Positions 10,473 through 30,538 are shown, counted from the stretch's first letter. The stretch: 64,000 nt of DNA from Candidatus Latescibacterota bacterium (GCA_965222075.1 OZ244937.1:3744001-3808000); one strand, 5' to 3'. Notes: generated by a model not told the origin, from the sequence alone. Numbers and translations: made by a program.

Positions 10473-10498
10473 CCTGCCTGCGCCGGATGCTCGGCAGG
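10473..10498. repeat. Mini-palindrome insertion (26 bp, frameshifting)
   Basis: CCTGCCTGCGCCGGATGCTCGGCAGG, matching 38993 onward. Removing it rejoins EPAP to HREGKRGP. Confidence 0.8.
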
Positions 10499-10970
10499 CA
10501 CCGGGAAGGCAAACGCGGACCCAAACCCAAAAAGGGAAGCCGGCAAAGAAAGCTGAAGACATGGGCTACTCGTTCAGATACGCCCTTTGTGGAAGAAGAT
10601 ATTCAATGGTATGGCGGGAAAATCAAAAAGATGCTGCTGTTCTCACAAACCGCACTGTGGTATACCCCCCGATGGGATCCGGTGCCTATCCGCTTTGTCA
10701 TCACCAGAGATCCAGAAGGTAAGCTGAGGGATGAGGTCTTCTTTTGCACCAACCCAGATGATACCCCCGTGCAAATCGTCGAGTGGGTCGTGATGCGCTT
10801 TTCGATAGAAACCACCTTCCAAGAGGCCAGAGCCCATCTAAGAATGGAAACCCAACGCCAGTGGTCCGATCTGGCCATAAAACGCACCACACCGGTCCTG
10901 CTGTTCCTCTTTTCTATCGTGATCTTACTGGCAATGCGCTTACAACAACACGATTCTATCCCGGTGCAGG

Positions 10971-10997
10971 CCTACCAGAGACTTCTTGGTAGGCAGG
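10971..10997. repeat. Mini-palindrome insertion (27 bp, in frame)
   Basis: CCTACCAGAGACTTCTTGGTAGGCAGG; removing it restores PVQATAWYRK. Confidence 0.7.
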
Positions 10998-11064
10998 CCA
11001 CAGCCTGGTATCGAAAACAGAACCCACCTTCTCTGGCTGTATGCTTCTGATACGCCGTCATTTA

Positions 11065-11097
11065 CCTGTCTGCGTGCGTGCCACACGCACAGGCAGG
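11065..11097. repeat. Mini-palindrome insertion (33 bp, in frame)
   Basis: CCTGTCTGCGTGCGTGCCACACGCACAGGCAGG; removing it restores RRHL|W. Confidence 0.85.
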
Positions 11098-11254
11098 TGG
11101 GAAGCATAGTTTCTTGTGAACTCTACGCAAAAGCAAGAGAAGGTACAATTTCCTTGCGAGATCCTCGATCTCCTTTGTGGGTTGCAATTGCCTTTAGTCG
11201 CTTAGCCGCTTCGTTGGCTAAAGTCCAGTTACATCTCATTTAGGATTGCTATAC

Positions 11255-13690: not shown

Positions 13691-13949
13691 GTCGCTGCCC
13701 CCTCTCATCAGGATTGGCAATATGTATACTTGTGCTCTTTGCTGTAAACGCTTTCTGGATGAGGTATATTAGAAAGTTGTGGACGGGTACAGAAAATGAG
13801 CGTATCCTTGAGTATCAACAAAACCCAAAATCCCTCGGTCGAGGGAGATTCGAGACACCTTCCGGAGACGTCTTCACCTGAGCGCGCAGATGGCTCAGGC
13901 GGGCATCTGCGCCACCCTCCATCCCTCCGAAGAAAGGAGCACCAACCCT

Positions 13950-15002
13950 ATGCAAACCCTCTCCCAACAGGTCAGCCGTCCCGTCTACGACGACCTCGGA
14001 GCGCCCGAACCGATCGAACCGATCTTCGCCGAAGGCACCGACCCCACGCTCGAAGACTGGCAGGACCGGCGCGCGGTCCTGAAAGAACGCTGGAACGCGG
14101 TCCTGGGCACCCCCTCCCTGGACATTTTCGACACGCGCCCGGAAATCATCAACACCTTCGAACAGCCTGCATACCGGGCCACCGTATTCAAACAGCCCAC
14201 CGGACCTGACACCCGCCAGACCCTTCTGCTCATGGAACCCGGGCAGGCGGCCCATTCCCCCCGTCCCGGTATGGTCGTCCCCTTCTACCACCCGGACCCG
14301 ATGGCCGGCATCGACCTGGACACGCAGGAGCCCATCGCCGAAGACCGAAATATCCAGTTCGGCCGCCACCTCGTGCAGCAGGGAAACGTGGTGGTCTGCA
14401 CCGAAGCCTTCCCGTTCAACACCGTACCCGAACCCGCAGACAACAAAAGCTTTTCCTGGTGGCAGGCCGCCGCAGACAAACTGCTGAAAGACCATCCCAA
14501 CTGGACCGGCATCGCCAAACTCGTCTGGGACGCCAGCCGGGCCGTCGACCTCCTGCTGGACCAGCCCGACATCGACCGGAAACGAATCGGCATCATGGGA
14601 CACTCCCTGGGCGGAAAAATCGCCTTCTACACCGGCGCGCTCGACGAACGCATCCAGGCCATTGTCGCCTCCGACTTCGGCATGGGGTTCAACTTCACCA
14701 ACTGGGATGCCCCCTGGTACCTGGGCGACCAGATCCACCGCCCCGACTTCACCCTTGCCCACCACCACCTCCTGGCCCTGCACGCCCCCCGGTCCTTCTT
14801 CCTCTTCGGCGGCGAAGCGGACCGCCCTGCAACCTGGCAGTACATCAACGAAGCCAAAAAAGTCTACGCCCTCTACGGCAAACCGGACGCCGTCGGCTTC
14901 TTCGACCACGCCTCCGGCCACCGCCCCACCGGTGAATCGTTGAAAATCGCCTACCGCTGGCTGGCGGAACGGTTCGGGCTGGCGGAACAGCCGTGGGAGT
15001 GA
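13950..15002 (+). CDS. Alpha/beta hydrolase (dienelactone hydrolase / acetylxylan esterase-like)
   Basis: GHSLGG nucleophile elbow, D..RAVDLL...PDID..RIG, G..D, GH; AAGGAG RBS before ATG 13950. Confidence 0.88.
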   Translation: MQTLSQQVSRPVYDDLGAPEPIEPIFAEGTDPTLEDWQDRRAVLKERWNAVLGTPSLDIFDTRPEIINTFEQPAYRATVFKQPTGPDTRQTLLLMEPGQAAHSPRPGMVVPFYHPDPMAGIDLDTQEPIAEDRNIQFGRHLVQQGNVVVCTEAFPFNTVPEPADNKSFSWWQAAADKLLKDHPNWTGIAKLVWDASRAVDLLLDQPDIDRKRIGIMGHSLGGKIAFYTGALDERIQAIVASDFGMGFNFTNWDAPWYLGDQIHRPDFTLAHHHLLALHAPRSFFLFGGEADRPATWQYINEAKKVYALYGKPDAVGFFDHASGHRPTGESLKIAYRWLAERFGLAEQPWE

Positions 15003-15048
15003 CCCCTCCCCCGGCCCCTCCCCGAAACGGGGAGGGGAGAGCGTGCTC

Positions 15049-15210
15049 CTAAGAGGGTTGGGAGGTAGAGCGTTTCTTCAGTTGGGCCACGATACGACTC
15101 AGAACACCTTCAAAATTCTGTCTTATATCTTCATTCTGGATTCGTATAACCTTCAAACCACGAGATGCAAGAATACCATCACGTTCTGCAACAATATTTC
15201 TCTTCCTCAT
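15049..15210 (-). pseudogene. DUF559 endonuclease with a 231-bp in-frame internal deletion
   Basis: Reads MRKRNIV|AERDGILASRG...; junction at 15190/15191 relative to the intact copy. Confidence 0.85.
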
Positions 15211-15381
15211 CCTACAACCGTCACCTCCTCCGCCTTTCTCCCCCTTTCCTCTCAGGAAAGGGGGCCGGGGGGATAGGTCACTCAGTCCGATGGCTGGCAG
15301 AACAGTTCGGGCTGGCGGAACAGCCGTGGGAGTGACCCCTCCCCCAGCCCCTCCCCGAAACGGGGAGGGGAGAGGGTGCTC

Positions 15382-15774
15382 CTAAGAGGGTTGGGAGGTA
15401 GAGCGTTTCTTCAGTTGGGCCACGATACCACTCAGAACACCTTCAAGATTCTGTCTTATATCTTCATTCTGGATTCGTATAACCTTCAAACCACGAGATG
15501 CAAGAATACCATCACGTTCTGCATCGTACTTGACCTGCTGATGATGAACACCGCCATCCACTTCGATCACCAATCCAGCAGCATGACAGTAGAAATCCAC
15601 AATAAATCCATCAATGACCTGCTGCCGACGAAAGTGAAACCCCTCCAGTCGATTGGCGCGAAGACGTTCCCAGAGAATGCCCTCTTCTTCCGTCATCTGA
15701 CCACGAAGCATTCTTGCCCGCTTCACCTTATCCAGATCCACTCTCTGCCCAATAACAATATTTCTCTTCCTCAT
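15382..15774 (-). CDS. DUF559 / Vsr-like endonuclease-domain protein, intact copy 1
   Basis: ARMLR..MT.EE..LWERLR, FRRQ..I..FIVDFYC....LVIEVDGGVH, D.ERD..L...G..VIRI.N; GGAGGTG RBS upstream. Confidence 0.92.
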   Translation of the reverse strand: MRKRNIVIGQRVDLDKVKRARMLRGQMTEEEGILWERLRANRLEGFHFRRQQVIDGFIVDFYCHAAGLVIEVDGGVHHQQVKYDAERDGILASRGLKVIRIQNEDIRQNLEGVLSGIVAQLKKRSTSQPS

Positions 15775-15945
15775 CCTACAACCGTCACCTCCTCCGCCTT
15801 TCTCCCCCTTTCCTCTCAGGAAAGGGGGCCGGGGGGATAGGTCACTCAGTCCGATGGCTGGCAGAACGGTTCGGGCTGGCGGAACAGCCGTGGGAGTGAC
15901 CCCTCCCCCAGCCCCTCCCCGAAACGGGGAGGGGAGAGGGTGCTC

Positions 15946-16338
15946 CTAAGAGGGTTGGAAGGTAGAGCGTTTCTTCAGTTGGGTCACGATACCACTCAGA
16001 ACACCTTCAAGATTCTGTCTTATATCTTCATTCTGGATTCGTATAACCTTCAAACCACGAGATGCAAGAATACCATCACGTTCTGCATCGTACTTGACCT
16101 GCTGATGATGAACACCGCCATCCACTTCGATCACCAATCCAGCAGCATGACAGTAGAAATCCACAATAAATCCATCAATAACCTGCTGCCGACGAAAGTG
16201 AAATGCCTCCAGTCGATTGGCGCGAAGACGTTCCCAGAGAATGCCCTCTTCTTCCGTCATCTGACCACGAAGCATTCTTGCCCGCTTCACCTTATCCAGA
16301 CCCACTTTCTGCCCAATAACGATATTTCTTCTCCTCAT
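15946..16338 (-). CDS. DUF559 / Vsr-like endonuclease-domain protein, intact copy 2
   Basis: Near-identical to 15382-15774, offset by 564 bp. Confidence 0.92.
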   Translation of the reverse strand: MRRRNIVIGQKVGLDKVKRARMLRGQMTEEEGILWERLRANRLEAFHFRRQQVIDGFIVDFYCHAAGLVIEVDGGVHHQQVKYDAERDGILASRGLKVIRIQNEDIRQNLEGVLSGIVTQLKKRSTFQPS

Positions 16339-16405
16339 CCTACACCCGTCACCTCCTCCGCCTTTCTCCCCCTTTCCTCTCAGGAAAGGGGGCCGGGGGG
16401 ATAGG

Positions 16406-18820
16406 TCACTCATACCGCAGCGCATCCACCGGATTCGCCAGTGCAGCCTTCATAGACTGGGCGCCCACCGTCAGAAGGGCGATCCCCAGCGCCAGAACGC
16501 CGCATAGGATGAAGATTTCCGGTCCGGGATCAATCCGATACGCAAAGTCCTGAAGCCATCTGTTCATCACATAGTAGGCAGCCGGCCAGGCCAGCAGATT
16601 GGCAACCACAACAAGCTTTGCAAATTCTCCGGAAAGCAGGAGAACGAGGTTGGATACTGAAGCCCCCAGCACCTTACGGATACCGACCTCCTTGGTTCGC
16701 CGCGTTACGGAGAGAGACGCCAGCCCAAGAAGTCCCAGACAGGAAATCAGGATCGCAAACAGAAAGGTGTACCCCGTAATTCTGATCCATCGGTCTTCAT
16801 TCTGGTACTGGCGAACGAGATTATCTTCGAGGAAGGAATACTGAAACGGCTGGTCCAACGCGACAGCCTCCCACGTCTTCTTCAGAAAGGCGATAGTGCC
16901 GGCAATGTCCTCGGGCTGGATCCGGATCAGTACGAAAGGCCCATACGACCGGGGTCCAGTGTGCAGCAGCAACGGCTGAATTCCCCTGTGCAGGGAATCG
17001 ATATGGAAATCCCTTACAACGCCGATGACGGTCAGTTCTCCCAACTTCTCCCAGTCCAGATTTTTCAGGGTCTTCCCGACGGGATCCTCCCATCCGAGCA
17101 TTCCGGCCAGCTTCTCATTCACAAGCGCGAACGATTGTGGATCGGACGGGGATGTCGGTGAGAAATTCCGTCCTGCAACAAGCTGGATCTTCAGGGTCTC
17201 AAGATAATCGGGATCTACCCGGATGACCCGAACCCTTAGACGCTCGCCGTCTTCTTTTTCCATGCCTATGCCTCTGGATCCGGTCGTAAACGCCCGGTCA
17301 CTGATGGTTGCGCTGACAACCCGAGGAGATTTGGAAACTTCCACTTTGTACCGTTCGCTGACAGCGTCTGAATTCGCCACCATGGCAGGAACAACCACCA
17401 CCTGTTCTTCACGGTACCCCAGATCCTTTTCTCTCAGGTAGTTGAGCTGTTGGACCATCATCGCGGCGCTGATCATCAGTGCGATCGACAGAGCATACTG
17501 CACAACCACCAGCGCACGCGTACCCACGTTTCGCCCCCCAATCCGCACCTGGCCTTTGAGCACCTCTACCGCGTGGAGCCGGGGCAGTACTACGGCCGGA
17601 TAACTGCCCGCCGCAAGTCCTGCAATGCCCACCAGCCCCAGAAGCATGAGCGTTGTTCCCCAACTGTCCAAATAGGAAATGCTCAAATTCTTGCGCGCCA
17701 GATCATTGAAGACGGGCAGAAACATCTCGGCCAGAGCGATTCCCATCACCAGGGCAAACATGCTTAAAAGCAACGCCTCGCCCCAGAACTGCTGCATAAG
17801 CTGCCTCCGCTGCGCTCCCAGCACTTTTCGCATTCCCACCTCTCGTGCGCGTCCCACGGACCGGCCGACCGCCAGAGTCATATAATTGATACACGCGATT
17901 GCAAGCACCAGAAGCGCAAGCCCGGAAAGCAAGTAGGAGTAGACCACGTTGCCATTGGCTTCGTACGAACTTCTGACCTCAGAATTCAGGTAAACGTCCC
18001 GCAGCGGCTGGAGGCGCAGCAAAAACCCGTCCTCTGCGTCCCTCACGTGACCGTGCGTTTTGAACAACCCGATCCTGTCTCCCAGGTGCTTCTCGGCAAA
18101 GGGCGGAAACACCGCTTCCAAAGCCTCCGCATCCTGTCCTTCCACAAGCTGCACGTACATAGAGGCATTCCCACCACCCCAATCCGTATTCACAGCATAA
18201 TACCTGTGGTGTTCAATCGGGATCAGAAGACCGAATTTCAGGCTGGAGGTCTCGGGAACGTCTCGCATCACCCCCGTGACGGTAAAGTCCTGAGCTCTAA
18301 ACGACAGCGGTTTCCCCAGAGCCGCAGCGTAACCGTCTTCCAAATTTCCAAAGAGCTTGCGCGCGACCGTCTCGCTGATCACCACACCATCCGGCTGGCG
18401 CAGGGCCGTCGCAGGGTCTCCCGCCAGGAGTGGGAAGGAGAATATCTCCAGAAAGTCCGCGTCCACCAGGCCGAAGGATTCCCGAAAGGCGATCTCCTGA
18501 TATGAAACCTGCGTCCTGGAGCGCATAAATCCGCTCGCCCGGATAACACCCGGAAACTCCTCCCGTAGCGCTGCCGCAAGAGAAGCAGGGTGAAGCGTGG
18601 AAAACCTGACACTGCCATCAGGCCTGGTCTCCCGTACAATCACCCGAAAAATCCGGTCAGAATTCTCGTGGAAGGCATCGTACTGCCATTCGTGCCGGAC
18701 GAACAGGAAGATCAGAATACAACACGCAAGGCCGACCGCCAGTCCAAACACGTTGATGAACGCATACAGCTTCTGCCGGAGCACGTTTCGCACAGCCACG
18801 ATCAGGTAGTTTCGGAACAT
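16406..18820 (-). CDS. MacB/FtsX-family ABC permease, paralogue 2
   Basis: MFRNYL, IACINY, RAREVGMRKVLGA, RTKEVGIRKVLGA, ends ANPVDALRYE. Confidence 0.95.
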   Translation of the reverse strand: MFRNYLIVAVRNVLRQKLYAFINVFGLAVGLACCILIFLFVRHEWQYDAFHENSDRIFRVIVRETRPDGSVRFSTLHPASLAAALREEFPGVIRASGFMRSRTQVSYQEIAFRESFGLVDADFLEIFSFPLLAGDPATALRQPDGVVISETVARKLFGNLEDGYAAALGKPLSFRAQDFTVTGVMRDVPETSSLKFGLLIPIEHHRYYAVNTDWGGGNASMYVQLVEGQDAEALEAVFPPFAEKHLGDRIGLFKTHGHVRDAEDGFLLRLQPLRDVYLNSEVRSSYEANGNVVYSYLLSGLALLVLAIACINYMTLAVGRSVGRAREVGMRKVLGAQRRQLMQQFWGEALLLSMFALVMGIALAEMFLPVFNDLARKNLSISYLDSWGTTLMLLGLVGIAGLAAGSYPAVVLPRLHAVEVLKGQVRIGGRNVGTRALVVVQYALSIALMISAAMMVQQLNYLREKDLGYREEQVVVVPAMVANSDAVSERYKVEVSKSPRVVSATISDRAFTTGSRGIGMEKEDGERLRVRVIRVDPDYLETLKIQLVAGRNFSPTSPSDPQSFALVNEKLAGMLGWEDPVGKTLKNLDWEKLGELTVIGVVRDFHIDSLHRGIQPLLLHTGPRSYGPFVLIRIQPEDIAGTIAFLKKTWEAVALDQPFQYSFLEDNLVRQYQNEDRWIRITGYTFLFAILISCLGLLGLASLSVTRRTKEVGIRKVLGASVSNLVLLLSGEFAKLVVVANLLAWPAAYYVMNRWLQDFAYRIDPGPEIFILCGVLALGIALLTVGAQSMKAALANPVDALRYE

Positions 18821-18875
18821 GGAGATTCCCTCTCAAAAGACGTGAAATGTGAGAGGCTCACCACCCCTGGAAGAA

Positions 18876-18966
18876 GCCAGAACACCGGAGAAAGGGTGGA
18901 TGGGTCCGCCTTTCTCCCCCTTTCCTCTCAGGAAAGGGGGCCGGGGGGATAGGTCACTCATACCGC
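18876..18966. repeat. Solo A arm; direct repeat of 19776-19866
   Basis: About 90 bp near-identical at a 900-bp offset; hairpin CCCCCTTTCCT-CTC-AGGAAAGGGGG at 18916-18940. Confidence 0.9.
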
Positions 18967-19006
18967 TGGCAGTCAGCGGTCAGGGCTCAGCGGAAATCGC
19001 TGCGTC

Positions 19007-19684
19007 TCACTCAGTTTGTTCATCCTTATCGATCCACCCGTCCAGCAGGTGAATCACCTTGCGACCATACGACGCGTTCTTCTCCGAATGCGTCGCCTGG
19101 ACAATCGTCGTCCCTCCCTGATTCAATTTCGTGAACAGCGCCATCACCTCTTCCCCCTGTGCCGAATTCAGATTCCCGGTCGGCTCATCGGCCAAGATCA
19201 GCTTCGGACTCGTGATCACCGCCCTGGCAACTGCCACGCGCTGCTGCTCCCCGCCGGAAAGCTGATTCGGAAACAGGTCTTTCTTCGCCACAATATTGAA
19301 CCGGTCCAGCATATCGCAAACCAGTCCCCTGCGCTCCGATCCCCTGACCTTCTTGTACAGCAGCGGCGTCTCCAGGTTCTCGTACACCGTCAACTCGTCA
19401 ATCAGGTGGTAACTCTGGAACACAAACCCGATATGGTGCTTGTGCAGATCCGTCCGCTTCCGCTCGTTCAACTTGTGCGTCGGTTCGTCGAAAAAGTAAT
19501 ACGCCCCATTCGACGGCTCATCGAGCATTCCCAGGATATGCAGCAGCGTGGACTTCCCGGCGCCCGACGGCCCCATAATCGAAACGAACTCCCCCTCCTC
19601 GATTTCAAGGTCGATATTCCTCAGCACGAAGGTCTTCACAAAACCCGTTGAGTAGTATTTCTCGATCTCTCGAAGCCGAATCAT
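19007..19684 (-). CDS. ABC ATP-binding protein (LolD/MacB-like)
   Basis: [36 protein letters not shown]; AAGGAGG RBS before ATG 19684. Confidence 0.95.
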
Positions 19685-19775
19685 CGTGTGCCTCCTTAAG
19701 GCGCATGGCATTTGGTTAATTGGTATTTCAGCGATTTTTGAAACGGGTCGGACAAAGTGTGGAGAACGGATTCTT

Positions 19776-19866
19776 GCCTGAACACCGGAGGAAGGGTGGA
19801 TGGGTCCGCCTTTCTCCCCCTTTCCTCTCAGGAAAGGGGGCCGGGGGGATAGGTCACTCATACCGC
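19776..19866. repeat. Solo A arm overlapping the stop codon of permease 3
   Basis: Hairpin at 19816-19840; GGTCACTCATACCGC contains the permease stop (19854-19856). Confidence 0.9.
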
Positions 19867-22226
19867 AGCGCATCCACCGGATTCGCCGTCGCCGCCCGGA
19901 TCGCCTGCACGCTCACGGTCAACAGTGCGACAAACAGGGCCAGCCCTCCGGACGCTGCAAATACCCACCAGCCGATGTCGATGCGATAGGCAAAATCCTG
20001 CAGCCAACGGTCCAGGATGTAATACGCGATTGGCGAAGCCACCACAAAGGCGATAAGCACCAGCCGGGCGAAGTCCCTGGACAACAGGAGCACAATATTC
20101 TCCACCGTCGCCCCCAGCACCTTCCGGATGCCGATCTCCTTCGTCCGCTGCTGGGCCGTAAAAGAAGCAAGCCCGAACAGCCCCAGGCAGGCAATGAAAA
20201 TGGCCAGTCCCGAAAAAACCTCGAACACCCGGGCCATGCGCTGCTCGCTCTCGTAAAGCCGCAGGTAGTCCCCCTCCAGAAAGGAATACGCGAAGGGCCG
20301 ATGGGGCGCGAACTTCTCCCAGACCTGCCGCACGGCAGAAACAGCATCGGCCACGTTGCCGGGCTGCAACCGGACGGCAACATAAGAACGGCCCCAGCGG
20401 AGAAACGGAAGCACCAGGGGTTGGACCCGGTGGCGGAGCGACCCGTAGTGGAAGTCCTCCACAACGCCGATGACCCTGCCTTCTCGGCCTGTCAGCCTCA
20501 TTCGCTTGCCGACCGGCTCTTCCCACCCGAGCGCCGAGGCGGCAGACTGGTTGATGAGAAACGCCGTGGAGTCCGAGGCGAAGTCTCCGGGAGCGAAGTT
20601 CCGACCCCGGACGACCCGCAACCCCAGCGCTTCGGTATAATGCTCGTCGACCATCACGTAGGTAAGTGAGGTCTCCTCGTAGTTGGCAGGCTGCTCAGGC
20701 ACGAACCGCGTGGAATCAAAGCGGTGGCCCGGCAGGCCCTCGGTAACCGAGGCCACAGCCACCTGCGCAAGCGCTCCGAGCCGCTCCCTGAATGCAGCAA
20801 CCTGCCTGCCCAGACTCCTGGCCCCATGCACCACAAGCACGTGTTCTTTATCGAACCCGAGCCGCTTGTGCTGCATATAGCGGAGTTGCTCGTGAACAAC
20901 CAGCGTGCCGATGAGCATTCCAATAGATATGCAGAACTGCGCCACAACCAGCCCGTTGCGCAGCCGGTCCCCGCCGAAGCGACCTGCAACACGTCCCCTG
21001 AGCACCTGCACAGGCCAGAAGGACGACAGGAAAAATGCCGGATACATCCCTGCCAGCACGGCCACCGCCGTCACAATTCCGCCCAGCGCCAGAACCGCGA
21101 ACGGCGAACTCAGGCTTCCGGTTGTCAGCTGTTTGCCGACAAAGCCGTTGAGGAACGGCAACCCCAGTTCGCTCAACCCCAGCGCCAGAACCACCGCCAG
21201 CGCCACATACAGCGACGACTCGACGAGAAACTGGCGAACGAGCTGCGCACGCTGGGAACCCAGAACTTTCCGAACACCCACCTCCCGGGCGCGGTTGGTC
21301 GAACGCGCTGTGGACAGGTTCACAAAATTGATACACGCCAAAAGCAGGATAAAGACGGCAACAAGAGAAAAAATATAAACGTTCAAAATATCGCCGGTCG
21401 GCTCCAGTTCCAACTCCAGATGCGAGTGCAGATGAATATCCGTCAACGGCTGCAACAGGAACCGGCTGTAGCCTCCTGCACGGGAAAAACGCTTCTCCAG
21501 TCCGCGACGCTCGACATGTTCCCGGAGCTTCGTCTCCACCCCGGACGCTTTTGTCCCCTCCCTCAAAACCACATACGTATAGACGGTGGCCGACCCCCAA
21601 CCCTTCTGTCGTCGTTCGACGATCGGAAGCGTTCTCAAAGGTGCGAGAAAATCGAAGTGAAAATGGGACTGGAGAGGAAACCCCCTCACCACGCCCGTGA
21701 CGCGCAGAAGCGTACCGTCGTTGAGTTCCAGCGGCTGTCCGAACGGGTCCTGGTCCCGGAAATACCGCCGCGCCGTCTCTTCCGTAATCACAACCGCATC
21801 CGGATCGCGCAGCGCCGTTTCCGGATCTCCCTCGACGAAGGGCGCGGTGAACACATCGAAAAAACCCTCCTCCACATAAAAAAAGTCACCTTCAATCACG
21901 TACTCCCGGCCGTGGCGCAGCGTCCGGCGCTCACGCCTCATACGCACCGTCCGCTCCACCTCCGGTAAATCCGCCAGCGCTTCAGCGACGGGAATAGGCC
22001 CTTTAGGAATCGTCCATTCATTGTCGCCGTAGCGAGCGTCCCACAGAACGCGATAGATCCGGTCCGCCTTTTCGTGGAACCGGTCGTAGCTCACCTCGTC
22101 CAGCACGAACAGCAGGATCAGGATGCAGCACGCCATCCCCACGGCCAGGCCCAGAATGTTGATGGCCGAATAGACCCGGTGCCGCAGCAAATTCCGCACC
22201 GCAACCTTCAGATCATTCTTAAACAT
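19854..22226 (-). CDS. MacB/FtsX-family ABC permease, paralogue 3
   Basis: LACINFVNLSTARS..RAREVGVRK, RTKEIGIRKVLGA, ends ANPVDALRYE. Confidence 0.95.
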   Translation of the reverse strand: MFKNDLKVAVRNLLRHRVYSAINILGLAVGMACCILILLFVLDEVSYDRFHEKADRIYRVLWDARYGDNEWTIPKGPIPVAEALADLPEVERTVRMRRERRTLRHGREYVIEGDFFYVEEGFFDVFTAPFVEGDPETALRDPDAVVITEETARRYFRDQDPFGQPLELNDGTLLRVTGVVRGFPLQSHFHFDFLAPLRTLPIVERRQKGWGSATVYTYVVLREGTKASGVETKLREHVERRGLEKRFSRAGGYSRFLLQPLTDIHLHSHLELELEPTGDILNVYIFSLVAVFILLLACINFVNLSTARSTNRAREVGVRKVLGSQRAQLVRQFLVESSLYVALAVVLALGLSELGLPFLNGFVGKQLTTGSLSSPFAVLALGGIVTAVAVLAGMYPAFFLSSFWPVQVLRGRVAGRFGGDRLRNGLVVAQFCISIGMLIGTLVVHEQLRYMQHKRLGFDKEHVLVVHGARSLGRQVAAFRERLGALAQVAVASVTEGLPGHRFDSTRFVPEQPANYEETSLTYVMVDEHYTEALGLRVVRGRNFAPGDFASDSTAFLINQSAASALGWEEPVGKRMRLTGREGRVIGVVEDFHYGSLRHRVQPLVLPFLRWGRSYVAVRLQPGNVADAVSAVRQVWEKFAPHRPFAYSFLEGDYLRLYESEQRMARVFEVFSGLAIFIACLGLFGLASFTAQQRTKEIGIRKVLGATVENIVLLLSRDFARLVLIAFVVASPIAYYILDRWLQDFAYRIDIGWWVFAASGGLALFVALLTVSVQAIRAATANPVDALRYE

Positions 22227-22908
22227 GGGACCGTCCCTTCACATTCTCCGTCACCACATGCCCGTCAAACAGGTGGATAATGCGGTGGCTGTATCCCGCA
22301 TCGTGCGCCGAGTGGGTCACCATCACAATCGTGGTGCCCACCTTGTTCAACTCCGTCAGCAGGTCCATCACCTCATCCCCGTGGCTCGAATCCAGGTTCC
22401 CCGTCGGCTCGTCGGCCAGGATCAGCTTGGGCTTGGTCACCACTGCCCGGCCCACCGCCACGCGCTGCTGCTGTCCCCCGGACAGCTGCTGCGGGAAGTG
22501 GTTCTTTCGGTGCGTGATCCCCATATAATCCAGCACCTCTTCCACCTTTTTCTTCCGCTCCGAACCCGAAACCCCCAGGTACAGCAACGGCAGCTCCACG
22601 TTCTCGAACACCGTCAGCTCGTCAATCAGGTTAAAACTCTGGAACACGAACCCGACCGTCCCCTTCCGCAGGTTCGCCCGCTGTCTTTCAGAATAGGTCG
22701 ACACCTCCCGGTCCTCCAGAAAGTACTCCCCGCTGCTGGGCTGGTCCAGAAGCCCCAGAACATTGAGCAACGTGGACTTCCCGCATCCCGAAGGCCCCAT
22801 CACAGCCACGAACTCACCCGCGCCGATTTCAACATTCACATTGTTCAAGGCGGTGGTCTCCACCTCTTCAGTCGTATAAGCCTTGCTCAGACCGTTGGTT
22901 TTGATCAT
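22219..22908 (-). CDS. ABC ATP-binding protein (LolD/MacB-like)
   Basis: [31 protein letters not shown]. Confidence 0.95.
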   Translation of the reverse strand: MIKTNGLSKAYTTEEVETTALNNVNVEIGAGEFVAVMGPSGCGKSTLLNVLGLLDQPSSGEYFLEDREVSTYSERQRANLRKGTVGFVFQSFNLIDELTVFENVELPLLYLGVSGSERKKKVEEVLDYMGITHRKNHFPQQLSGGQQQRVAVGRAVVTKPKLILADEPTGNLDSSHGDEVMDLLTELNKVGTTIVMVTHSAHDAGYSHRIIHLFDGHVVTENVKGRSHV

Positions 22909-22920
22909 AGCTTACTCCTC

Positions 22921-24174
22921 TCAATCTTTTAAGATGAGCTTTTCTATCTCCTCATAATGCTCATACGACGACGTCACAACGCGTTCCTCCGGCTCCAGCC
23001 CCTCCAGCACCTCGAAAAACTCCGGATTCTGCCGGCCGATCCGCAGCGGCCGACGTACCGCAAACGCCCCCGACGGGTCCACCACAAACACCCAGTTCCC
23101 TCCCGTGGTCTGATAAAATCCTCCCCTGGCCAGGAGCACGGCCTCGGAAAGGTCCCCCAGGGCCAGCCGGATGTGGAGCGTCTGTCCCCGGCGGATGTCT
23201 TCGGGCATTTCTCCTGCAAACTCGAGATCAACCTCAAACCGGCCGTCTAAAATCTCCGGATAGACCTTCTTGATCACCAGGTGGTAGGTCTTCCCGGCAA
23301 GATCGAACATACCGGTCTGCCCCGGATTGATCCGATGGATATAAAACTCATCGATGTCCGCCCGGGCCTTAAACCCGTCCAGCACATCGACCTGCCCCAA
23401 ACGCTGTCCTTTGGACTTCAACTCCCCGATCTCCGCATTCAGCGACGTCAACTGCCCGCTCACCGGCGCCTTTAAAATCAAATTTTCCAGATTCCGTTTC
23501 ACAGCCTTCAGATTCAACTCTAACTTTTTAACCGAAGCCTCCATATGTGCAATCTGGCCCTGGCGGTACAGAGAATCCTGCCTCACGGTCTGAACCATAA
23601 ACTCCTGCCGCTTCAACTGGTATTCGTAATTTTCCTTGCTTTCCGCATAATCTTTCCTTGCAATCAAATTCCGCTTCATCAATTCCTCATGTCTTAAATA
23701 TTCCCGTCTCGCCTGCTGAACCTGGTATTCAATATTAATCAATTCCTCCTGCCGTCTAATCGTCTGCTGTTCCATATTAATGCGGGTATTCTCCATATTA
23801 TTAATCTGTTCGAATAAAACGGCCTCCTGGTTCATCACGCTCAGTTCCAGCATCGGGTCCGACAGCCTCAGAAGCGGCTCCCCTTTGGTGACCATACTCC
23901 CCTCTTCCACAAAGACCTCCTCCACCTGTCCGCCGACCAGAGCATCCAGATAGATCGTCTGAATGGGCAGCATCGTCCCCCGAACCGGAATAAACTCCTG
24001 AAACGGCCCCCGCTCAACCGTAGAAATCGTAATCCGCTCGACCTTCACGTTCAGCTTCGCACTGTGGTCCCCCAGCAAGAATTCGTAGAGAACCGCACCA
24101 ACAAAAAGCCCGGCCAGGGCCATCCCCGCAATCCGTCTCGGGGGCCACCGGCGCTTCCGGATCTTCCGGTCCAT
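22921..24174 (-). CDS. Efflux periplasmic adaptor subunit (MacA/HlyD-like)
   Basis: MDRKI start, single TM, GGQVEEVFVEEG..V.KG..L, coiled-coil hairpin, APVSG, IGRQNP..FEVLEGL. Confidence 0.92.
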   Translation of the reverse strand: MDRKIRKRRWPPRRIAGMALAGLFVGAVLYEFLLGDHSAKLNVKVERITISTVERGPFQEFIPVRGTMLPIQTIYLDALVGGQVEEVFVEEGSMVTKGEPLLRLSDPMLELSVMNQEAVLFEQINNMENTRINMEQQTIRRQEELINIEYQVQQARREYLRHEELMKRNLIARKDYAESKENYEYQLKRQEFMVQTVRQDSLYRQGQIAHMEASVKKLELNLKAVKRNLENLILKAPVSGQLTSLNAEIGELKSKGQRLGQVDVLDGFKARADIDEFYIHRINPGQTGMFDLAGKTYHLVIKKVYPEILDGRFEVDLEFAGEMPEDIRRGQTLHIRLALGDLSEAVLLARGGFYQTTGGNWVFVVDPSGAFAVRRPLRIGRQNPEFFEVLEGLEPEERVVTSSYEHYEEIEKLILKD

Positions 24175-24355
24175 CGCCAGCCCTTCTTCCGTTCCCCCCG
24201 TCGACGACCGGCTCTGCGAACCACCGGCTCCGGACTCCGGACTCCAGTTCACAATCTTGTCCACCAGATCGTCTTTGGCACGCCCTGGTTCTTCGCTCAA
24301 CACAATTCACCTCATCATTTTTTCATCCGTACACCGATCCTCAACTTCTCACTTC

Positions 24356-24976
24356 CTACAAACTCCCCGTCACCCCCAACCGCTCAACCTCTCCTCTCAA
24401 CCGATGCCGCCCCCGATACAGCCAGACCTTCAACGTTCCGACCGGCACCTGGAGCTCCTCCACAATCTCATGATAAGATCGTTCCCTTACATAATGCAAC
24501 CAGACCGCCTCGCGCTGCCGGTCCGGCAGCGCCTGGATGCTCTGCATCACAATCTCCCGGCGCTCCTTCCGCACCATCACGGCTTCGGGATCTTCGTGAG
24601 GCGCCGGGCGCCACCGCGCCTGAAGCGCGGGTACGGCATCGTCTACTTCATCCAGCCAATTTCTCTGCGTCCGCCGGGTCCGCAAATAGGATGTACACAC
24701 ATTCAGAGCAATGCGCGTCAGCCAGGTAGAGAAAGTGGCCTGCCCCCGAAAATTGGCCAGCCCCTGAAAGGCCTTCATAAAAACCATCTGGACCAGGTCC
24801 TCTGTCTCATCTCCCTTCCTTGTGCACCGATGCACAATCGCACGCACCCGGTCACGGTGCGTCCTGTAAAGAACTTCAAAAGCCCCGTCATCTCCCGCAA
24901 GCGCCCGATCGATCAGCGCCGCATCCGATTCAGGCGCACACTGCAATGTTTCAGGATCGTTTTTCTTTCCCCTCAC
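24356..24976 (-). CDS. ECF sigma-70 factor
   Basis: D..AF..LY, EDLVQ.VF.KA, FSTWL.RIA.N (region 2); LP.RQREA..L......SY.EI...L.VPVGT.K..L.RGR (region 4). GTG start at 24976 after GAGGGAG. Confidence 0.92.
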   Translation of the reverse strand: MRGKKNDPETLQCAPESDAALIDRALAGDDGAFEVLYRTHRDRVRAIVHRCTRKGDETEDLVQMVFMKAFQGLANFRGQATFSTWLTRIALNVCTSYLRTRRTQRNWLDEVDDAVPALQARWRPAPHEDPEAVMVRKERREIVMQSIQALPDRQREAVWLHYVRERSYHEIVEELQVPVGTLKVWLYRGRHRLRGEVERLGVTGSL

Positions 24977-25041
24977 AACAGAACTCCCTCGGTTTTCATA
25001 TCCCGGATGCCTGCAAAACACCGAACTTCTGTTCAGAAGAA

Positions 25042-25057
25042 AGCGACAACCGTGCCA
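25042..25057 (-). promoter_or_regulatory. sigma54 -24/-12 promoter upstream of the ECF sigma / adaptor / ABC operon
   Basis: Minus strand TGGCACG-GTTG-TCGCT; IHF-like TTTCAACTGCTTA at 25077-25089. Confidence 0.75.
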
Positions 25058-25114
25058 ACACTGGTTTTTTATTATTTTTCAACTGCTTATATATGTTTCC
25101 CCCAAAAAAACGAT

Positions 25115-25163
25115 CAAAAAAGTGTCCGCTGGCGATACACAAGTGTCCGCTAACGGACACTTC
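25115..25163. promoter_or_regulatory. Tandem palindromic enhancer (candidate bEBP UAS), copy 1
   Basis: AGTGTCCGCTGGCGATACAC-AAGTGTCCGCTAACGGACACTT; repeated at 35691-35739. Confidence 0.7.
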
Positions 25164-25192
25164 ACACTGCACCACTCCCACACACAGGCCAA

Positions 25193-25890
25193 ACATCAAA
25201 CTCCCCGTCACCTCCTCCGCCTTTCTCCCCCTTTCCTCTCAGGAAAGGGGGCCGGGGGGATAGGTCACTCAGTCCGCTGGCTGGCAGAACAGTTCGGGCC
25301 GGCGGAACAGCCGTGGGAATGACCCCTCCCCCAGCCCCTCCCCGAAACGGGGAGGGGAGAGCGTGCTCCTAAGAGGGTTGGAAGGTAGTTGGCGCGAAGA
25401 CGTTCCCAGAGAATGCGCTCTTCTTCCGTCATCTGACCACGAAGCATTCTTGCCCGCTTCACCTTATCCGGATCCACTCTCTGCCCAATAACGATATTTC
25501 TCTTCCTCATCCTACACCCGTCACCTCCTCCGCCTTCCTCCCCCTTTCCTCTCAGGAAAGGGGGCCGGGGGGATAGGTCACTCAGTCCGCTGGCTGGCAG
25601 AACAGTTCGGGCCGGCGGAACAGCCGTGGGAATGACCCCTCCCCCAGCCCCTCCCCGAAACGGGGAGGGGAGAGGGTGCTCCTAAGAGGGTTGGCGAGAA
25701 GGCGTTCCCAGAGAATGCCCTCTTCTTCCGTCATCTGACCACGAAGCATTCTTGCCCGCTTCACCTTATCCAGGTCCACTCTCTGTCCAATAACGATATT
25801 TCTTTTACTCATCCTGCACCCCTCACCTCCCCCGCCTTTCTCCCCCTTTCCTCTCAGGAAAGGGGGCCGGGGGGATAGGTCACTCATACC
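25193..25890. mobile_element. Tandem array 2 of the DUF559 hairpin element (A-B-deleted gene-A-B-deleted gene-A)
   Basis: A hairpins at 25227, 25540, 25842; B hairpins at 25335, 25648; DUF559 remnants lack 251 and 262 bp. Confidence 0.85.
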
Positions 25891-28219
25891 TTAGCGCATC
25901 CACCGGGTTCGCCCGTGCCGCACGCATTGCCTGCGACCCTACCGCCAGCAGCACGATCGCCAGCATCAACACCCCACCCAAAACGAACGTCCCGACCCCC
26001 AGCTCAATCCGATACGCAAAATCCTGCAACCACCGCTCCATCGCATAATACGCCACCGGCCAGGCGATGACACTGGCAACAGCCACGAGCACGAGGAACT
26101 CCCTGGAAAGCAGGGACAGGATATTGGGAACCGTGGCGCCCAGCGCCTTCCGAATGCCGATCTCCTTCGTCCGCCGCGCCACCGCAAGCGCCGTCAGCCC
26201 GAACGCGCCGAGACAGGCGATGAAAACCGCGAACAGCGCGGAATACTGTACGATTCGGTTCCAGCGTTCCTCCTTCCTGTACTGCCGGTCCACCTCCTCG
26301 TCAAGAAAAGAATACTGAAACGGAAGGTCCGGTGCGACCTCCTGCCACTTCTCCTCCAAAAAGGCCAGCGTGCCCGGGATGTTCTCCGGGCGGATCCGGA
26401 TTAGCAATCGGGTAAACCCCGGACTGAGCCTCAACACCGCCGGCCCGATCTTGTGGTGCAGGGAGCGAAAATGGAAGTCCTGCACCACGCCGATCACAGT
26501 AATATCCCGCTTGTTCATCCGCAGCATCCTGCCCGCCACCGGCCTGTCCCACCCCAAACGCCGGACCAGGGCCTCGTTCACGATAATGGAAGCCCTGGAA
26601 TCCGTATTCCGTGTATCGAAATCCGCTCCCTCCAGGAGGGAGATATCCATCGTCTCCAGGAAGTCATAGCCGACAAAGACCATCTCAACACCCATTTCAT
26701 TCCCTTCATGCTCAATGCTGTTCCTGTACCTCGTCCTGCTGCTCAGCGCGTTGCTGGTCCCTGTCACGCCCAGAACCCCGTGGTGTCCCAGCAACTCGTT
26801 CCGGTACACCCCGGGTAGATCCGAATCTCGCTCCCGCAGGTCCCAAATATGGATGTACAGGACGTGATCACTCTCAAAGCCCAGCGGTTTTGTCCTCAGA
26901 TACTCAAGTTGCCGGGCCATCAGCAGCGCACTGACCACCAGGAAGACGGACAGGGCAAGCTGGAAAACCACAAGCGCCCGGCCGAACAGGCTGGACCCTC
27001 CGAGGCTGAGCCTTCTTTTCAACACCGCAACGGACTGAAACCCTGACAGTACGAAGGCCGGGTAGCTGCCTGCGGCCAGCCCGACGGCCAGCGCCAGTCC
27101 GAGCAAAAAGACCAGGCCCACGCCATCCGCCTGATCGGCCAGGGCGAGGTCCTGACCGGCCAGGCTGTTGAAGGCCGGCAGGAGGAGTTCCGCCAGAGCG
27201 ACCCCGGCCACCAGGGCCATCGCGCTCAACAGCATCGACTCTCCCAGGAACTGCTTCATCAGCTGCGTCCGAGACGCACCCACCACCTTGCGCATCCCCA
27301 CCTCCCGGGCGCGGGCGAACGACCGGCCCACAGCCAGAGTCATAAAGTTCACGCACGCAATCACCAGCACCAGCAGGGCAATTCCCAGAAGAATATAAGA
27401 AAAGGCCGGATTGCTCGCGGGTTTGGGTCCCCGGGTGCCCGGATTGAGATGCACCTCCAGGAGCGGCTGGAGGCCCATCCTGGCGTCCCGCTTTTCTCCC
27501 AGCCACATCTTTAACAACTCCGGAAACCGTTCCTCCAGATCGGCCGGACGTCTGTGCTCCGGAAGCAGCAGGTAGGTCTGGATATCTTCCTGGCTCCAGC
27601 CCCTGAGCTCACCCCCGGCCTCGAACGGAGCCAGAAAATCGAACCGGATGCTGGAGTTCTTCGGAACGGGCTTCGCAATCCCGGTCACAACAAAATCCCA
27701 AACCACCGGCGGGCGGCCCCATATCTCAACGGAAAGGACTTTGCCCAGGGGGTCTTTATCTCCAAAGTACTTCCGTGCCGCCGCCTCGGTGATCACCACA
27801 GAGTACGGACCTTCCAGCACCGTCGTCGGGTCTCCCTTCACCAGGGGAAAGGTGAACACCTCCAGGATGGCCGGATCGACAAAGCGGAAACTTTCTCGAA
27901 ACGACCGGTCCCCCTGCATAACAGAGAAAGAGCCCCAGCCAATCCTGACGCTCCGGACGTCCGGAAACGCCTCCGCCAGCGCCGGCCCCAGCGCGTCCGA
28001 CGTAACGCCCGACGGCTCGAACCCGGTATCATCCATATAGACCCTGTAGATCCGATCCGCGTTCTCGTGGAACGCGTCGTACGTCCACTCCCGCCGGACG
28101 AACAGAAACGTCAGCACACAAAACGCAATCCCGATCGAAAGACCCGTCACGTTGATAAAAGAATAGACCTTATGGCGCACCAGATTGCGAAACGCTACTT
28201 TCAGATAATTTCCGAGCAT
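25880..28219 (-). CDS. MacB/FtsX-family ABC permease, paralogue 4
   Basis: MLGNYLKVAFRNL, IACVNF, RAREVGMRK, RTKEIGIRK, ends ANPVDALRYE. Confidence 0.95.
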   Translation of the reverse strand: MLGNYLKVAFRNLVRHKVYSFINVTGLSIGIAFCVLTFLFVRREWTYDAFHENADRIYRVYMDDTGFEPSGVTSDALGPALAEAFPDVRSVRIGWGSFSVMQGDRSFRESFRFVDPAILEVFTFPLVKGDPTTVLEGPYSVVITEAAARKYFGDKDPLGKVLSVEIWGRPPVVWDFVVTGIAKPVPKNSSIRFDFLAPFEAGGELRGWSQEDIQTYLLLPEHRRPADLEERFPELLKMWLGEKRDARMGLQPLLEVHLNPGTRGPKPASNPAFSYILLGIALLVLVIACVNFMTLAVGRSFARAREVGMRKVVGASRTQLMKQFLGESMLLSAMALVAGVALAELLLPAFNSLAGQDLALADQADGVGLVFLLGLALAVGLAAGSYPAFVLSGFQSVAVLKRRLSLGGSSLFGRALVVFQLALSVFLVVSALLMARQLEYLRTKPLGFESDHVLYIHIWDLRERDSDLPGVYRNELLGHHGVLGVTGTSNALSSRTRYRNSIEHEGNEMGVEMVFVGYDFLETMDISLLEGADFDTRNTDSRASIIVNEALVRRLGWDRPVAGRMLRMNKRDITVIGVVQDFHFRSLHHKIGPAVLRLSPGFTRLLIRIRPENIPGTLAFLEEKWQEVAPDLPFQYSFLDEEVDRQYRKEERWNRIVQYSALFAVFIACLGAFGLTALAVARRTKEIGIRKALGATVPNILSLLSREFLVLVAVASVIAWPVAYYAMERWLQDFAYRIELGVGTFVLGGVLMLAIVLLAVGSQAMRAARANPVDALRYE

Positions 28220-28595
28220 ACGTCCCATCCCTCCAAAAGCGTGACTTGCAGAACCTCAGGACTTCATTCAGCCATTCGCCACCAGCCATCTCAGCTCATA
28301 GCCGGACACTTTCGTCCTGAGAAGCCGTTTTAAAATTCCCGGTGAGTTCCCGACACGCCCGCTCACGCGTCTCGCCTCTGGGATCCCCCCACCGGCGCGC
28401 CTGCGGGCTGGCGCCCCTAACTTGCCGACTCCTCCGGTTTGGTGTGAGAGGAAGGGGCTTTTCCGCGCAGATCCCCCCAGCACCTCCGCCCAAAAACGCC
28501 CAAAAGGTCCGCTGGGCACAAACGCCTGCTTACACCACAGGGGCAGTTCGCGGAAAAGCAGCCCCCGCGGCGTTTGAGCGGCGCCCTTCTTTTTC

Positions 28596-28627
28596 GGCCT
28601 TTTTCTTGGGCGAACAAGAAAAAGGCC
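28596..28627. repeat. 13-bp perfect hairpin in a structured intergenic region
   Basis: GGCCTTTTTCTTG-GGCGAA-CAAGAAAAAGGCC. Confidence 0.7.
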
Positions 28628-28689
28628 AGGAGTAAAAGAACCGTTGAACCCGGGGATCTACCCAAAGGTTATTTTCCAAGCAGCAGCTT

Positions 28690-29508
28690 CTAAAACTCCC
28701 GCAAACGAATCGAACCATTCACCGCCTTCAAATAAAGCAGGCGCCCGCCCCCGTTTATATCTCCGTCAACCGATTTGCTGATGCGGCCCTTCACCGTAAC
28801 CGGAAAATCCGTCTCGATATGCCCGTTCACCGTCGCTGCTTTCAGGTGCGCCTTGAACCCCCTGGGCAATGCAACCTCAATGCTGCCATTTGTCGTTGAA
28901 GCCCGAATTTCATGCTCATCCTGGCCCCTTTTGGAAAACGCCGCCTCAATCCTGCCGTTCGTCGTACTCGCCTGAATCGCGCCCTGAATCTCCGAGAGCC
29001 GGATATTCCCATTCTTCGTACTCGCCTGGATCGCCCCTTTAACCTCTGCAAACCGGATGCGGCCGTTGGCCGTTTCCGCCTCAATCGCTCCTGAAACAGC
29101 ATCGACCTGGATGCCTCCATTAACCGATTCCAATTCCAGGTCGATCTCTTTGGGCACCGTCAACGTATAACTCACGCTCACGCTCCGATTCCCTCGCAAG
29201 CGCAGCTCCGTCTGGATATCGATCCGGTCCGCCGTCCGGTCGATCCGCACCTCCGTCTTCTCCAGCAGCTTCCGCGCCTCTTCCTCGCTGCGGGCACGCG
29301 CTTTCTTTTTCGCCTGCACCTTCACCTCATTTCGATCCCAGGATCCAATCGTAATTCCCCCGTTCACGTTCACAAGCGTCAGTCGTCCTCCCGGCTGAAA
29401 CTGCATCGAACGCTCGATAACCTCCTGCTCCGTATACTCACCGGCGCCACAGACAACAGGAACAAGACAGAGACTGAACATCGCAACCAGAATGAAAATC
29501 GCCATCAT
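28690..29508 (-). CDS. DUF4097 family beta-strand-repeat (adhesin-like) secreted protein
   Basis: Signal peptide; repeated (T/V)xNGxI motifs (SVNGGI, TANGRI, TKNGNI, TTNGRI, TTNGSI, TVNGHI); L.VP and I.TDFP motifs. Confidence 0.85.
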   Translation of the reverse strand: MMAIFILVAMFSLCLVPVVCGAGEYTEQEVIERSMQFQPGGRLTLVNVNGGITIGSWDRNEVKVQAKKKARARSEEEARKLLEKTEVRIDRTADRIDIQTELRLRGNRSVSVSYTLTVPKEIDLELESVNGGIQVDAVSGAIEAETANGRIRFAEVKGAIQASTKNGNIRLSEIQGAIQASTTNGRIEAAFSKRGQDEHEIRASTTNGSIEVALPRGFKAHLKAATVNGHIETDFPVTVKGRISKSVDGDINGGGRLLYLKAVNGSIRLREF

Positions 29509-29534
29509 AGGACCTTAACCTCCTGTAATGTGAG

Positions 29535-30538
29535 ACATCAAACTCCCCGTCACCTCCTCCGCCTTTCTCCCCCTTTCCTCTCAGGAAAGGGGGCCGGGGG
29601 GATAGGTCACTCAGTCCGCTGGCTGGCAAAACAGTTCGGGCCGGCGGAACAGCCGTGGGAATGACCCCTCCCCCAGCCCCTCCCCGAAACGGGGAGGGGA
29701 GAGCGTGCTCCTAAGAGGGTTGGAAGGTAGAACATTTCTTCAGTTGGGTCACGATACCACTCAGAACACCTTTTGGCGCGAAGACGTTCCCAGAGAATGC
29801 CCTCTTCTTCCGTCATCTGACCACGAAGCATTCTTGCCCGCTTCACCTTATCCAGATCCACTCTCTGCCCAATAACAATATTTCTCTTCCTCATCCTACA
29901 ACCGTCACCTCCTCCGCCTTTCTCCCCCTTTCCTCTCAGGAAAGGGGGCCGGGGGGATAGGTCACTCAGTCCGCTGGCTGGCAAAACAGTTCGGGCCGGC
30001 GGAACAGCCGTGGGAATGACCCCTCCCCCGGCCCCTCCCCGAAACGGGGAGGGGAGAGCGTGCTCCTAAGAGGGTTGGAAGGTAGAGCGTTTCTTCAGTT
30101 GGGTCACGATACCACTCAGAACACCTTCAAGATTCTGTCTTATATCTTCATTCTGGATTCGTATAACCTTCAAACCACGAGATGCAAGAATACCATCACG
30201 TTCTGCGTCGTATTTGACCTGCTGCTGATGAACACCGCCATCCACTTCGATTACCAATCCAGCAGCATGGCAGTAGAAATCCACAATAAATCCATCAATG
30301 ACCTGCTGCCGACGAAAGTGAAACCCCTCCAGCCGATTGGCGCGAAGACGTTCCCAGAGAATGCCCTCTTCTTCCGTCATCTGACCACGAAGCATTCTTG
30401 CCCGCTTCACCTTATCCAGATCCACTCTCTGCCCAATAACAATATTTCTCTTCCTCATCCTACAACCGTCACCTCCTCCGCCTTTCTCCCCCTTTCCTCT
30501 CAGGAAAGGGGGCCGGGGGGATAGGTCACTCATACCGC
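29535..30538. mobile_element. Tandem array 3 of the DUF559 hairpin element (A-B-deleted gene-A-B-intact gene-A)
   Basis: A hairpins at 29569, 29924, 30488; B hairpins at 29677, 30032; first gene copy lacks 209 bp. Confidence 0.85.
30066..30458 (-). CDS. DUF559 / Vsr-like endonuclease-domain protein, intact copy 3
   Basis: Near-identical to 15382-15774. Confidence 0.92.
   Translation of the reverse strand: MRKRNIVIGQRVDLDKVKRARMLRGQMTEEEGILWERLRANRLEGFHFRRQQVIDGFIVDFYCHAAGLVIEVDGGVHQQQVKYDAERDGILASRGLKVIRIQNEDIRQNLEGVLSGIVTQLKKRSTFQPS

Follow-up and report, generated by a model that had tools for sequence, protein, structure and literature searches.

In the REP/REPIN-RAYT systems, a small enzyme gene is flanked by hairpin repeats, REP repeats flanking their RAYT gene; many gene-less inverted pairs occur as well, and the number of repeats depends on the gene. 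Here we describe a comparable arrangement around a DUF559 nuclease gene in a stretch of 64,000 nucleotides (nt) from Candidatus Latescibacterota bacterium (GCA_965222075.1 OZ244937.1:3744001-3808000), hereafter the window. In this window, a 564-bp unit consisting of a hairpin arm (B), the DUF559 gene, a second hairpin arm (A) and a linker is repeated in tandem arrays (Table 1). By their sequence, both arms are assigned to the published BoxC/PIT/TM family of intrastrand-triplex repeats, and what is new here is the connection of this recorded repeat family with a nuclease whose function is unknown.

BoxC, PIT and the TM motif are one and the same repeat, composed of three blocks, with a second loop of either the TTA or the CCG type (Holder et al. 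2015, PMC4666352). In that report, the TM motif is described from more than 260 genomes, is very abundant in cyanobacteria and is linked to rearranged loci as a hot spot of rearrangement, and earlier work on it by Maher's group is cited. It reports that the motif is not associated with plasmids, phages or transposons, and nowhere does it use the word 'endonuclease' (PMC4666352). For the enzyme, relatives have been described: I-Bth0305I, the prototype of the Vsr-like 'EDxHD' homing endonucleases, which is a multidomain protein of a group I intron with a 14-bp pseudopalindrome as its cleavage site (PMC3239194), and Vsr together with VsrA of Caulobacter, the latter a DUF559 protein, which represent nicking at short GC-rich motifs (PMC12907096).

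Positions given below without a prefix are those of the window, and those of its source genome, a single 5.36-Mb contig with a completeness of 97.6%, are prefixed with G000. In the window, 564 bp is the start-to-start spacing of a repeat family whose A-arm core is present in 11 copies; because the longest period covered by Tandem Repeats Finder is 500, this program missed it. Taking as queries the arms excised from the window at their coordinates, a scan that tolerates mismatches detected in the window 11 copies of the A arm (0-1 mismatch over 56 nt), 7 of the B arm (0-2 over 46 nt) and 7 of the linker; for the whole genome the numbers were 23, 13 and 9, respectively. A tblastn search of the genome with the 130-aa product retrieved three full-length copies of the DUF559 gene, all on the minus strand with 95-100% identity, together with four partial copies inside the window and three short remnants outside it. 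An earlier, sequence-only reading of this stretch had counted the same 11 A arms, 7 B arms, three intact and four deleted genes around a 564-bp unit, and the repeat search, the scan and tblastn recovered all of them, including the two solo A arms, which are real and span the positions it gave (18916 and 19816; Table 1). The four internally deleted genes show at least three different deletion junctions.

As that reading had also held, each arm is a perfectly paired hairpin of 10-11 bp (DNA fold z-scores from -2.9 to -3.3), and the A and B arms, read inward, are related inverted termini. At 152 loci, the module to which they correspond has a uniform build: a C-rich pyrimidine arm, a loop of 3-8 nt, the complementary purine arm, a turn and a G-rich tail ending in GGTC, the turn being CC(G), CT(G) or TT(G) in one type of module, whereas the other type has TTA, CTA or CCA. 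When modules were picked by the purine arm and tail alone, the complementary pyrimidine arm was present in 209 of 238, with 43 different stems, indicating that the structure is kept while the sequence changes. In addition, the tail is a mirror of the purine arm, in which an A of the arm is answered by A or T and a G by G. The resulting fit to a purine-motif triplex, a measure of sequence compatibility alone, is 8.43 of 9 positions compared with 7.73 (standard deviation 0.046) after re-pairing; none of 2000 shuffles reached the observed value for the 186 distinct module types, a result that is no probability because these types are related. A search of Rfam assigned no family to the arms, its sole matches being microRNA models far under their gathering scores. 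The turn itself varies among CC, CT and TT (CCGG versus CCAG on the plus strand) in the B arms at 14999-15041, 15329-15374 and others, as well as at loci L003 and L016; this is the pattern that cytosine deamination would leave, which is curious beside a Vsr-like nuclease.

The association of modules with the gene extends far beyond the window. Modules flank 11 of 11 close homologues in related genomes, and a module, recognised as a tailed hairpin, lies within 200 bp of 67 of 80 homologues (47-92% identity), which come from at least nine phyla (Latescibacterota, Cyanobacteria, Chloroflexota, Gemmatimonadota, Poribacteria, Bipolaricaulota, Fraserbacteria, Binatia and Zipacnadia). This conservation supports the layout given in the sequence-only reading, with the gene set between two arms. 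At the homologue loci, modules occur at 0.78 per 100-bp bin adjacent to the gene and at approximately 0.01 farther than 500 bp from it. The commonest order on the gene strand is a head-first module, the gene and a tail-last module, so that the outer ends form inverted repeats; two-module units without a gene are also common. The number of modules in a genome follows the presence of a close gene: the median is 43 with and 15 without such a gene among 40 related Latescibacterota, and 49 with and 7 without among 60 genomes of one cyanobacterial family, while within one genus the four genomes with the gene harbor 38-456 modules and the 12 without it 0-24. The highest of these numbers belongs to a genome with a single close DUF559 gene (G034), in which the modules often form 94-bp tandem runs and whose sister genomes in the genus have none; this excess looks like a recent burst.

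In Escherichia coli K-12 (NC_000913.3, L152 5206-5241, 5300-5400), one of the 23 TMECO/BoxC copies is located approximately 165 bp downstream of ycjD, the sole annotated DUF559 gene of this strain, an adjacency for which our own arithmetic gives a chance expectation of approximately 0.004. The stretch that separates ycjD from this BoxC copy contains a partial duplicate of the final ~50 nt of ycjD, which echoes the duplicated host or gene ends in the window. Searches of article texts found no paper on a DUF559 mobile element among those listed for DUF559 and none on BoxC among those listed for ycjD. No statement linking DUF559 to BoxC/PIT/TM was found in the literature searched; the supplementary tables of Holder et al. 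may list neighbouring genes. A text search for four module motifs returned unrelated primer matches only.

The product of the gene matches the Pfam family DUF559 (PF04480) with 121.3 bits against a cut-off of 20.6 (E-value 2e-35), in agreement with the assignment made from the sequence at the outset. A family search of the source genome revealed no DUF559 gene beyond the three intact copies and one partial copy, which is a weak blank since the PF04480 control missed the annotated ycjD of E. coli. With ratios of nonsynonymous to synonymous substitution rates (dN/dS) of 0.15-0.44, the intact copies appear constrained, and residues D60, E71, D73 and H77 are invariant in 30 sequences. A predicted structure model (pLDDT, the predicted local distance difference test, of 81) matched in Foldseek the DUF559 structure 3HRL (E-value 6.5e-8) and the catalytic domain of I-Bth0305I (E-value 6e-4, TM score 0.77), which was also found by a sequence profile (E-value 4e-4); E. 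coli Vsr was a weak match only (E-value 0.24). The product is accordingly modelled as a Vsr-like PD-(D/E)xK nuclease fold, and the gene flanked by the arms is a DUF559 gene and not that of an HUH enzyme or Y1 transposase (PF01797). A C5 cytosine methylase (PF00145) was not found in the source genome by a search that was positive in 9 of 14 control genomes, which weakens a plain role in very-short-patch repair. The coverage of the single public RNA run consists of part of the esterase gene alone and is uninformative on expression of the nuclease gene. By the labels of the public runs, the host belongs to a sponge-associated community.

The ends of the unit are closely tied to the neighbouring genes. 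The first eight bases are identical in both arms, and a TGA within them is the stop codon of the neighbouring gene, an esterase-like gene (...QPWE*) on one side and a MacB/FtsX-type permease gene (...ALRYE*) on the other. The 45-bp linker, which the sequence-only reading had included in the unit, is host DNA, composed of 9 nt of a permease-like 3' end fused to about 40 nt of an esterase-like 3' end; its source is the last ~45 nt of the esterase-like gene. One and the same linker junction occurs in every array, in a gene-less unit at G000 3830039, in a further array at G000 3838250-3840400 in which all genes are deleted, and in a genome of the same genus (G001), where the esterase orthologue shows 96% identity that extends through this end. 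Within 16 kb (16406-32271) there are four paralogous permease genes of the MacB/FtsX type, each terminating in an A arm; ABC ATPase genes accompany two of them and an HlyD-type gene accompanies one. Behind these four permeases, which are mutually 38-58% identical, the A arm begins at an identical base, and it does likewise behind a Gemmatimonas permease that is 43-47% identical to them, amounting to five permeases in two phyla; a fifth ...ALRYE* permease of the source genome ends in TAG and has no arm. Among 71 long open reading frames (ORFs) ending within 60 nt of a module head at all fetched loci, 27 have their stop codon inside the head, 21 at a TAA four bases into it and 6 at a TGA overlapping its first bases. 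The BoxC/PIT/TM membership, the host origin of the linker, the start of the arms in stop codons and the clustering of the copies described below had all escaped the earlier reading.

Table 1. Features of the three DUF559 arrays, the solo arms and the adjoining genes (window positions)
Feature	Position	Strand	Remarks
Esterase-like gene	13890..15002	+	Pfam alpha/beta-hydrolase and esterase families; ends ...QPWE*; TGA stop inside first B arm
B arm, array 1, 'Q'-type module on gene strand	14996..15041	+	1 mismatch; hairpin
Internally deleted DUF559 gene	15052..15212	-	Residues 85-130 and first few codons retained
A arm, 'P'-type module on gene strand	15229..15284	+	Mismatch-tolerant scan
Linker	15282..15336	+	9 nt permease-like 3' end and ~40 nt esterase-like 3' end
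B arm	15329..15374	+	Mismatch-tolerant scan
Intact DUF559 gene P0001, 130 aa	15382..15774	-	tblastn, Pfam
A arm	15793..15848	+	Scan, hairpin fold
Linker	15846..15900	+	Scan
B arm	15893..15938	+	Scan, hairpin fold
Intact DUF559 gene P0002	15946..16338	-	tblastn
A arm	16357..16412	+	Outer end contains stop codon of permease 16406-18820
MacB/FtsX-type duplicated permease	16406..18820	-	Ends ...ALRYE*; stop inside A arm
Solo A arm	18905..18960	+	Short permease 3'-end remnant; between ABC ATPase and permease genes
Solo A arm	19805..19860	+	At stop codon of permease 19854-22226
Array 2	25216..25886	+	A, linker, B, deleted gene, A, linker, B, deleted gene, A
Array 2 deleted genes	25382-25510 (residues 1-43) and 25684-25812		Array ends at stop of permease 25880-28228
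Array 3	29558..30532	+	A, linker, B, deleted gene, A, linker, B, intact gene, A
Array 3 genes	deleted 29769-29894; intact P0003 30066-30458 (-)		Array ends at stop of permease 30526-32271

Outside the window, solo A arms at G000 1713187, 1770107 and 3040069 are each accompanied by ~40 nt of a decayed permease 3' end; they sit in a longer repeated unit found at these three distant places, and the same composite borders the intact cassette of G001. These intergenic spacers are repeat mosaics; at least three other small repeat families share them with the DUF559 modules: one starting near a 'ggaaaataggctttcgg' core, a hairpin 'ggggcaaccc..ggttgcccc' and a 'gcgcggaaaagcccctt' unit. Such spacers are found at G000 2749950-2750450, 4097540-4097930 and 4183797-4183833 and at loci L002, L112 and L114 of G001. 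Within the window, the G + C content is 0.42-0.48 at positions 10001-14000, compared with 0.55-0.64 elsewhere.

The observations to be explained are the layout and its conservation across phyla, the occurrence of gene-less derivatives at several loci, and the relation of module number to the presence of the gene. The one that we favor, with a confidence somewhat above even, is that the 564-bp units are copies of a selfish cassette, made up of the DUF559 nuclease gene and two modules, that would be copied by break repair. The nuclease would nick or cut DNA at a module or next to it, and might recognise the module in its folded form; a filled copy would then serve as the template for repair of the break, much as in homing or gap repair. 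In this process, neighbouring host DNA (the linker and the permease remnant) would be dragged along and tandem arrays would be built, and aborted repair would leave internally deleted copies. In the source genome, the cassette may have spread mainly among the 3' ends of the paralogous permease genes, and as the module head supplies a stop codon behind the permeases, the host gene would be left unharmed. Break-repair copying would account for the host DNA that moves with the unit, for the tandem arrays and the variety of internal deletions, and for the constant position behind the permeases. A wider reading, which we put forward tentatively and at somewhat less than even confidence, is that the BoxC/PIT/TM repeats at large are the ends and gene-less offspring of a mobile family whose sole protein would be a DUF559 Vsr-like nuclease recognising folded (triplex or hairpin) ends.

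The comparison with the congener G001 bears directly on movement. Its only intact copy lies at a locus where the source genome has none, and its esterase-permease locus carries both arms with just the 5' leader and two codons between them. The same deletion junction of this gene-less form is found at five loci (G001 C8, C186, C161 and C112, and G000 3830139), suggesting that the gene-less form was copied after it arose. The sequence-only reading had envisaged autonomous, deleted and solo-arm forms of an REPIN-like system driven by a Vsr-like nuclease. That interpretation is supported in part: the gene-less and solo forms do exist and have been copied to several loci, the gene is non-HUH, the layout is conserved and module number tracks the gene. 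In this genus, however, neither a clean empty site nor a target duplication was found for the movement that the nuclease would drive.

At each site compared, other repeats or genes differed as well. The site of the source genome orthologous to the intact copy of G001 was rejected as an empty site because it holds other repeats and a decayed arm, and the inserts at C186 and C161 of G001 were rejected as clean insertions because they carry further repeat families. G034 and G026 could not serve as a filled and empty pair, their flanks being unalignable beyond the element. A two-module unit at 77.9 kb in the source genome (G000) was discarded as an empty-site case, as G001 has the site filled and a 1.3-kb gene takes its place in G004, and an apparent 25-bp target duplication proved to be a coding repeat and not a module. 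A 14-bp direct repeat flanks the cassette at locus L012 of one relative; elsewhere no consistent duplication was observed, and inverted ends are present.

Several observations weigh against a mobile cassette and are shared in part with the best of the alternatives, a passive duplication, which we regard as rather improbable. According to this alternative, an ordinary nuclease gene, for example that of a repair enzyme, lay in a repeat-rich spacer between convergent genes; one illegitimate join was followed by unequal crossing-over and gene conversion among the paralogous permease operons, and the BoxC-type modules promote instability and owe nothing to the nuclease. The single linker junction found everywhere is what one ancestral duplication would leave, and the host fragments travelling with the arms (the 45-nt esterase end and the 9-nt permease end) imply that the unit copied in this genome lacks fixed ends. 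Copies are concentrated, 20 of 23 A arms and 13 of 13 B arms lying within an 81-kb stretch (G000 3758996-3840251), which local duplication could produce; this clustering fits recombination copying better than free transposition. Among the compared sites, including those of G000, G001 and relatives, there is no clean pair of filled and empty sites with defined ends or a target duplication. TM repeats are published as rearrangement hot spots and the TMECO triplex was observed in vitro by circular dichroism and nuclear magnetic resonance and not in vivo by dimethyl sulfate footprinting (PMC4666352), and the Caulobacter DUF559 protein VsrA is interpreted as a mismatch-repair nuclease (PMC12907096).

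The evidence across genomes is likewise not uniform. Rank tests of module number overstate its link to the gene, as the genomes compared are related and not independent, and several genomes without a close gene are rich in modules: G004 with 69 (no match), G003 with 33, G006 with 39 and the cyanobacterial G091 with 97. On the protein tree, from which 16 of 81 rows were dropped for internal stops or a length below 105 aa, the phylum labels are clustered, with 12 changes against a minimum of 9 and a shuffled mean of 34; together with only a few well-supported cross-phylum pairs, this indicates a spread mostly within phyla. Nevertheless, a passive duplication leaves several findings unexplained: the same kind of module beside 67 of 80 homologues, which span at least nine phyla; the dependence of module number on the gene inside one genus; the identical starting base of the arm behind permeases of 38-58% identity and in another phylum; and the recurrence of one gene-less junction at unlinked loci. 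Nor was a C5 methylase partner found in the source genome.

A second alternative, which we consider unlikely, is that the modules are mobile by means of another enzyme, a Y1/HUH transposase or other, and insert at gene ends, with the DUF559 genes as passengers or preferred neighbours. There are 10 to 400 times as many modules as genes, modules are retained in genomes that lack a close gene, and the 27 of 71 long ORFs that stop in a module head point to modules at gene ends generally. The source genome also has two Y1_Tnp matches of the IS200/IS605 or RAYT type, at G000 2071937-2072296 and 3018501-3018743, one of them with an internal stop; however, no module of this genome lies within 20 kb of either match, and random insertion at gene ends would yield neither modules beside 84% of one small gene family, at approximately 70 times the background density, nor the co-occurrence of gene and modules. 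Finally, an assembly artefact in which the arrays are one copy repeated by mis-assembly is very improbable: although none of the examined short-read contigs from public runs spans an array and their summed depth is not a copy number, the three intact copies are distinguished from one another by 8-14 nucleotide positions and so are not one copy printed three times, the copies also differ in their deletions, the genome is a single contig, and the congener has the same kind of tandem unit. The contigs of two of these runs join 15041 to 16395, that is, the first B arm to the last A arm with all three gene units skipped, which could represent a gene-less allele in the population or a relative such as G001.

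If the link between the modules and the nuclease is functional, it would provide an origin and a mover for a repeat family that was described some thirty years ago, marks unstable loci and is unexplained, a role for part of DUF559, a large family of small nucleases, and a non-HUH, non-DDE, non-recombinase route by which structured bacterial repeats could spread; the nuclease would also be a protein from nature with a possible ability to read DNA folded as a triplex or hairpin. If the wider reading as a mobile family is true, a new class of prokaryotic mobile DNA would be represented by the BoxC/PIT/TM repeats, known since the 1990s from E. coli, cyanobacteria, Neisseria and hundreds more genomes. 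In either case, the window is useful as a specimen, with intact, deleted and solo forms together at a precisely repeated site behind paralogous genes.

Compared with the known systems, the enzyme belongs to the same domain family as Vsr and VsrA, and the second loop of the modules varies among CC, CT and TT as deamination would give; it differs in the lack of any C5 methylase found in the source genome and in the weak structural match to E. coli Vsr, and a repair role would leave the repeat ends unexplained. With I-Bth0305I it shares a homologous nuclease core, and a selfish spread by break repair would also co-convert flanking DNA, as is seen here in the host DNA that moves along with the cassette. 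Behind the diverged permeases, the point of insertion is constant. Unlike I-Bth0305I, it is a bare, free-standing domain of 130 aa with structured repeat ends and gene-less derivatives. The arrangement of one small enzyme gene between hairpin repeats, with many gene-less inverted pairs in the genome, is that of the REP/REPIN-RAYT systems, but the enzyme is a predicted Vsr-like PD-(D/E)xK nuclease instead of an HUH Y1 enzyme, and the repeats have a third, mirror block. They have the three-block build of BoxC/PIT/TM, in which a pyrimidine arm, a loop of 3-6 nt, a purine arm, a second loop of ~3 nt and a mirror G-rich block follow each other, the second loops are TTA and CCG, and the repeats are intergenic, multi-copy, abundant in cyanobacteria and linked to rearranged loci (PMC4666352). 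The modules described here differ from that description in forming the inverted ends of a DUF559 cassette, in occurring as two-module gene-less units and in overlapping the stop codons of host genes.

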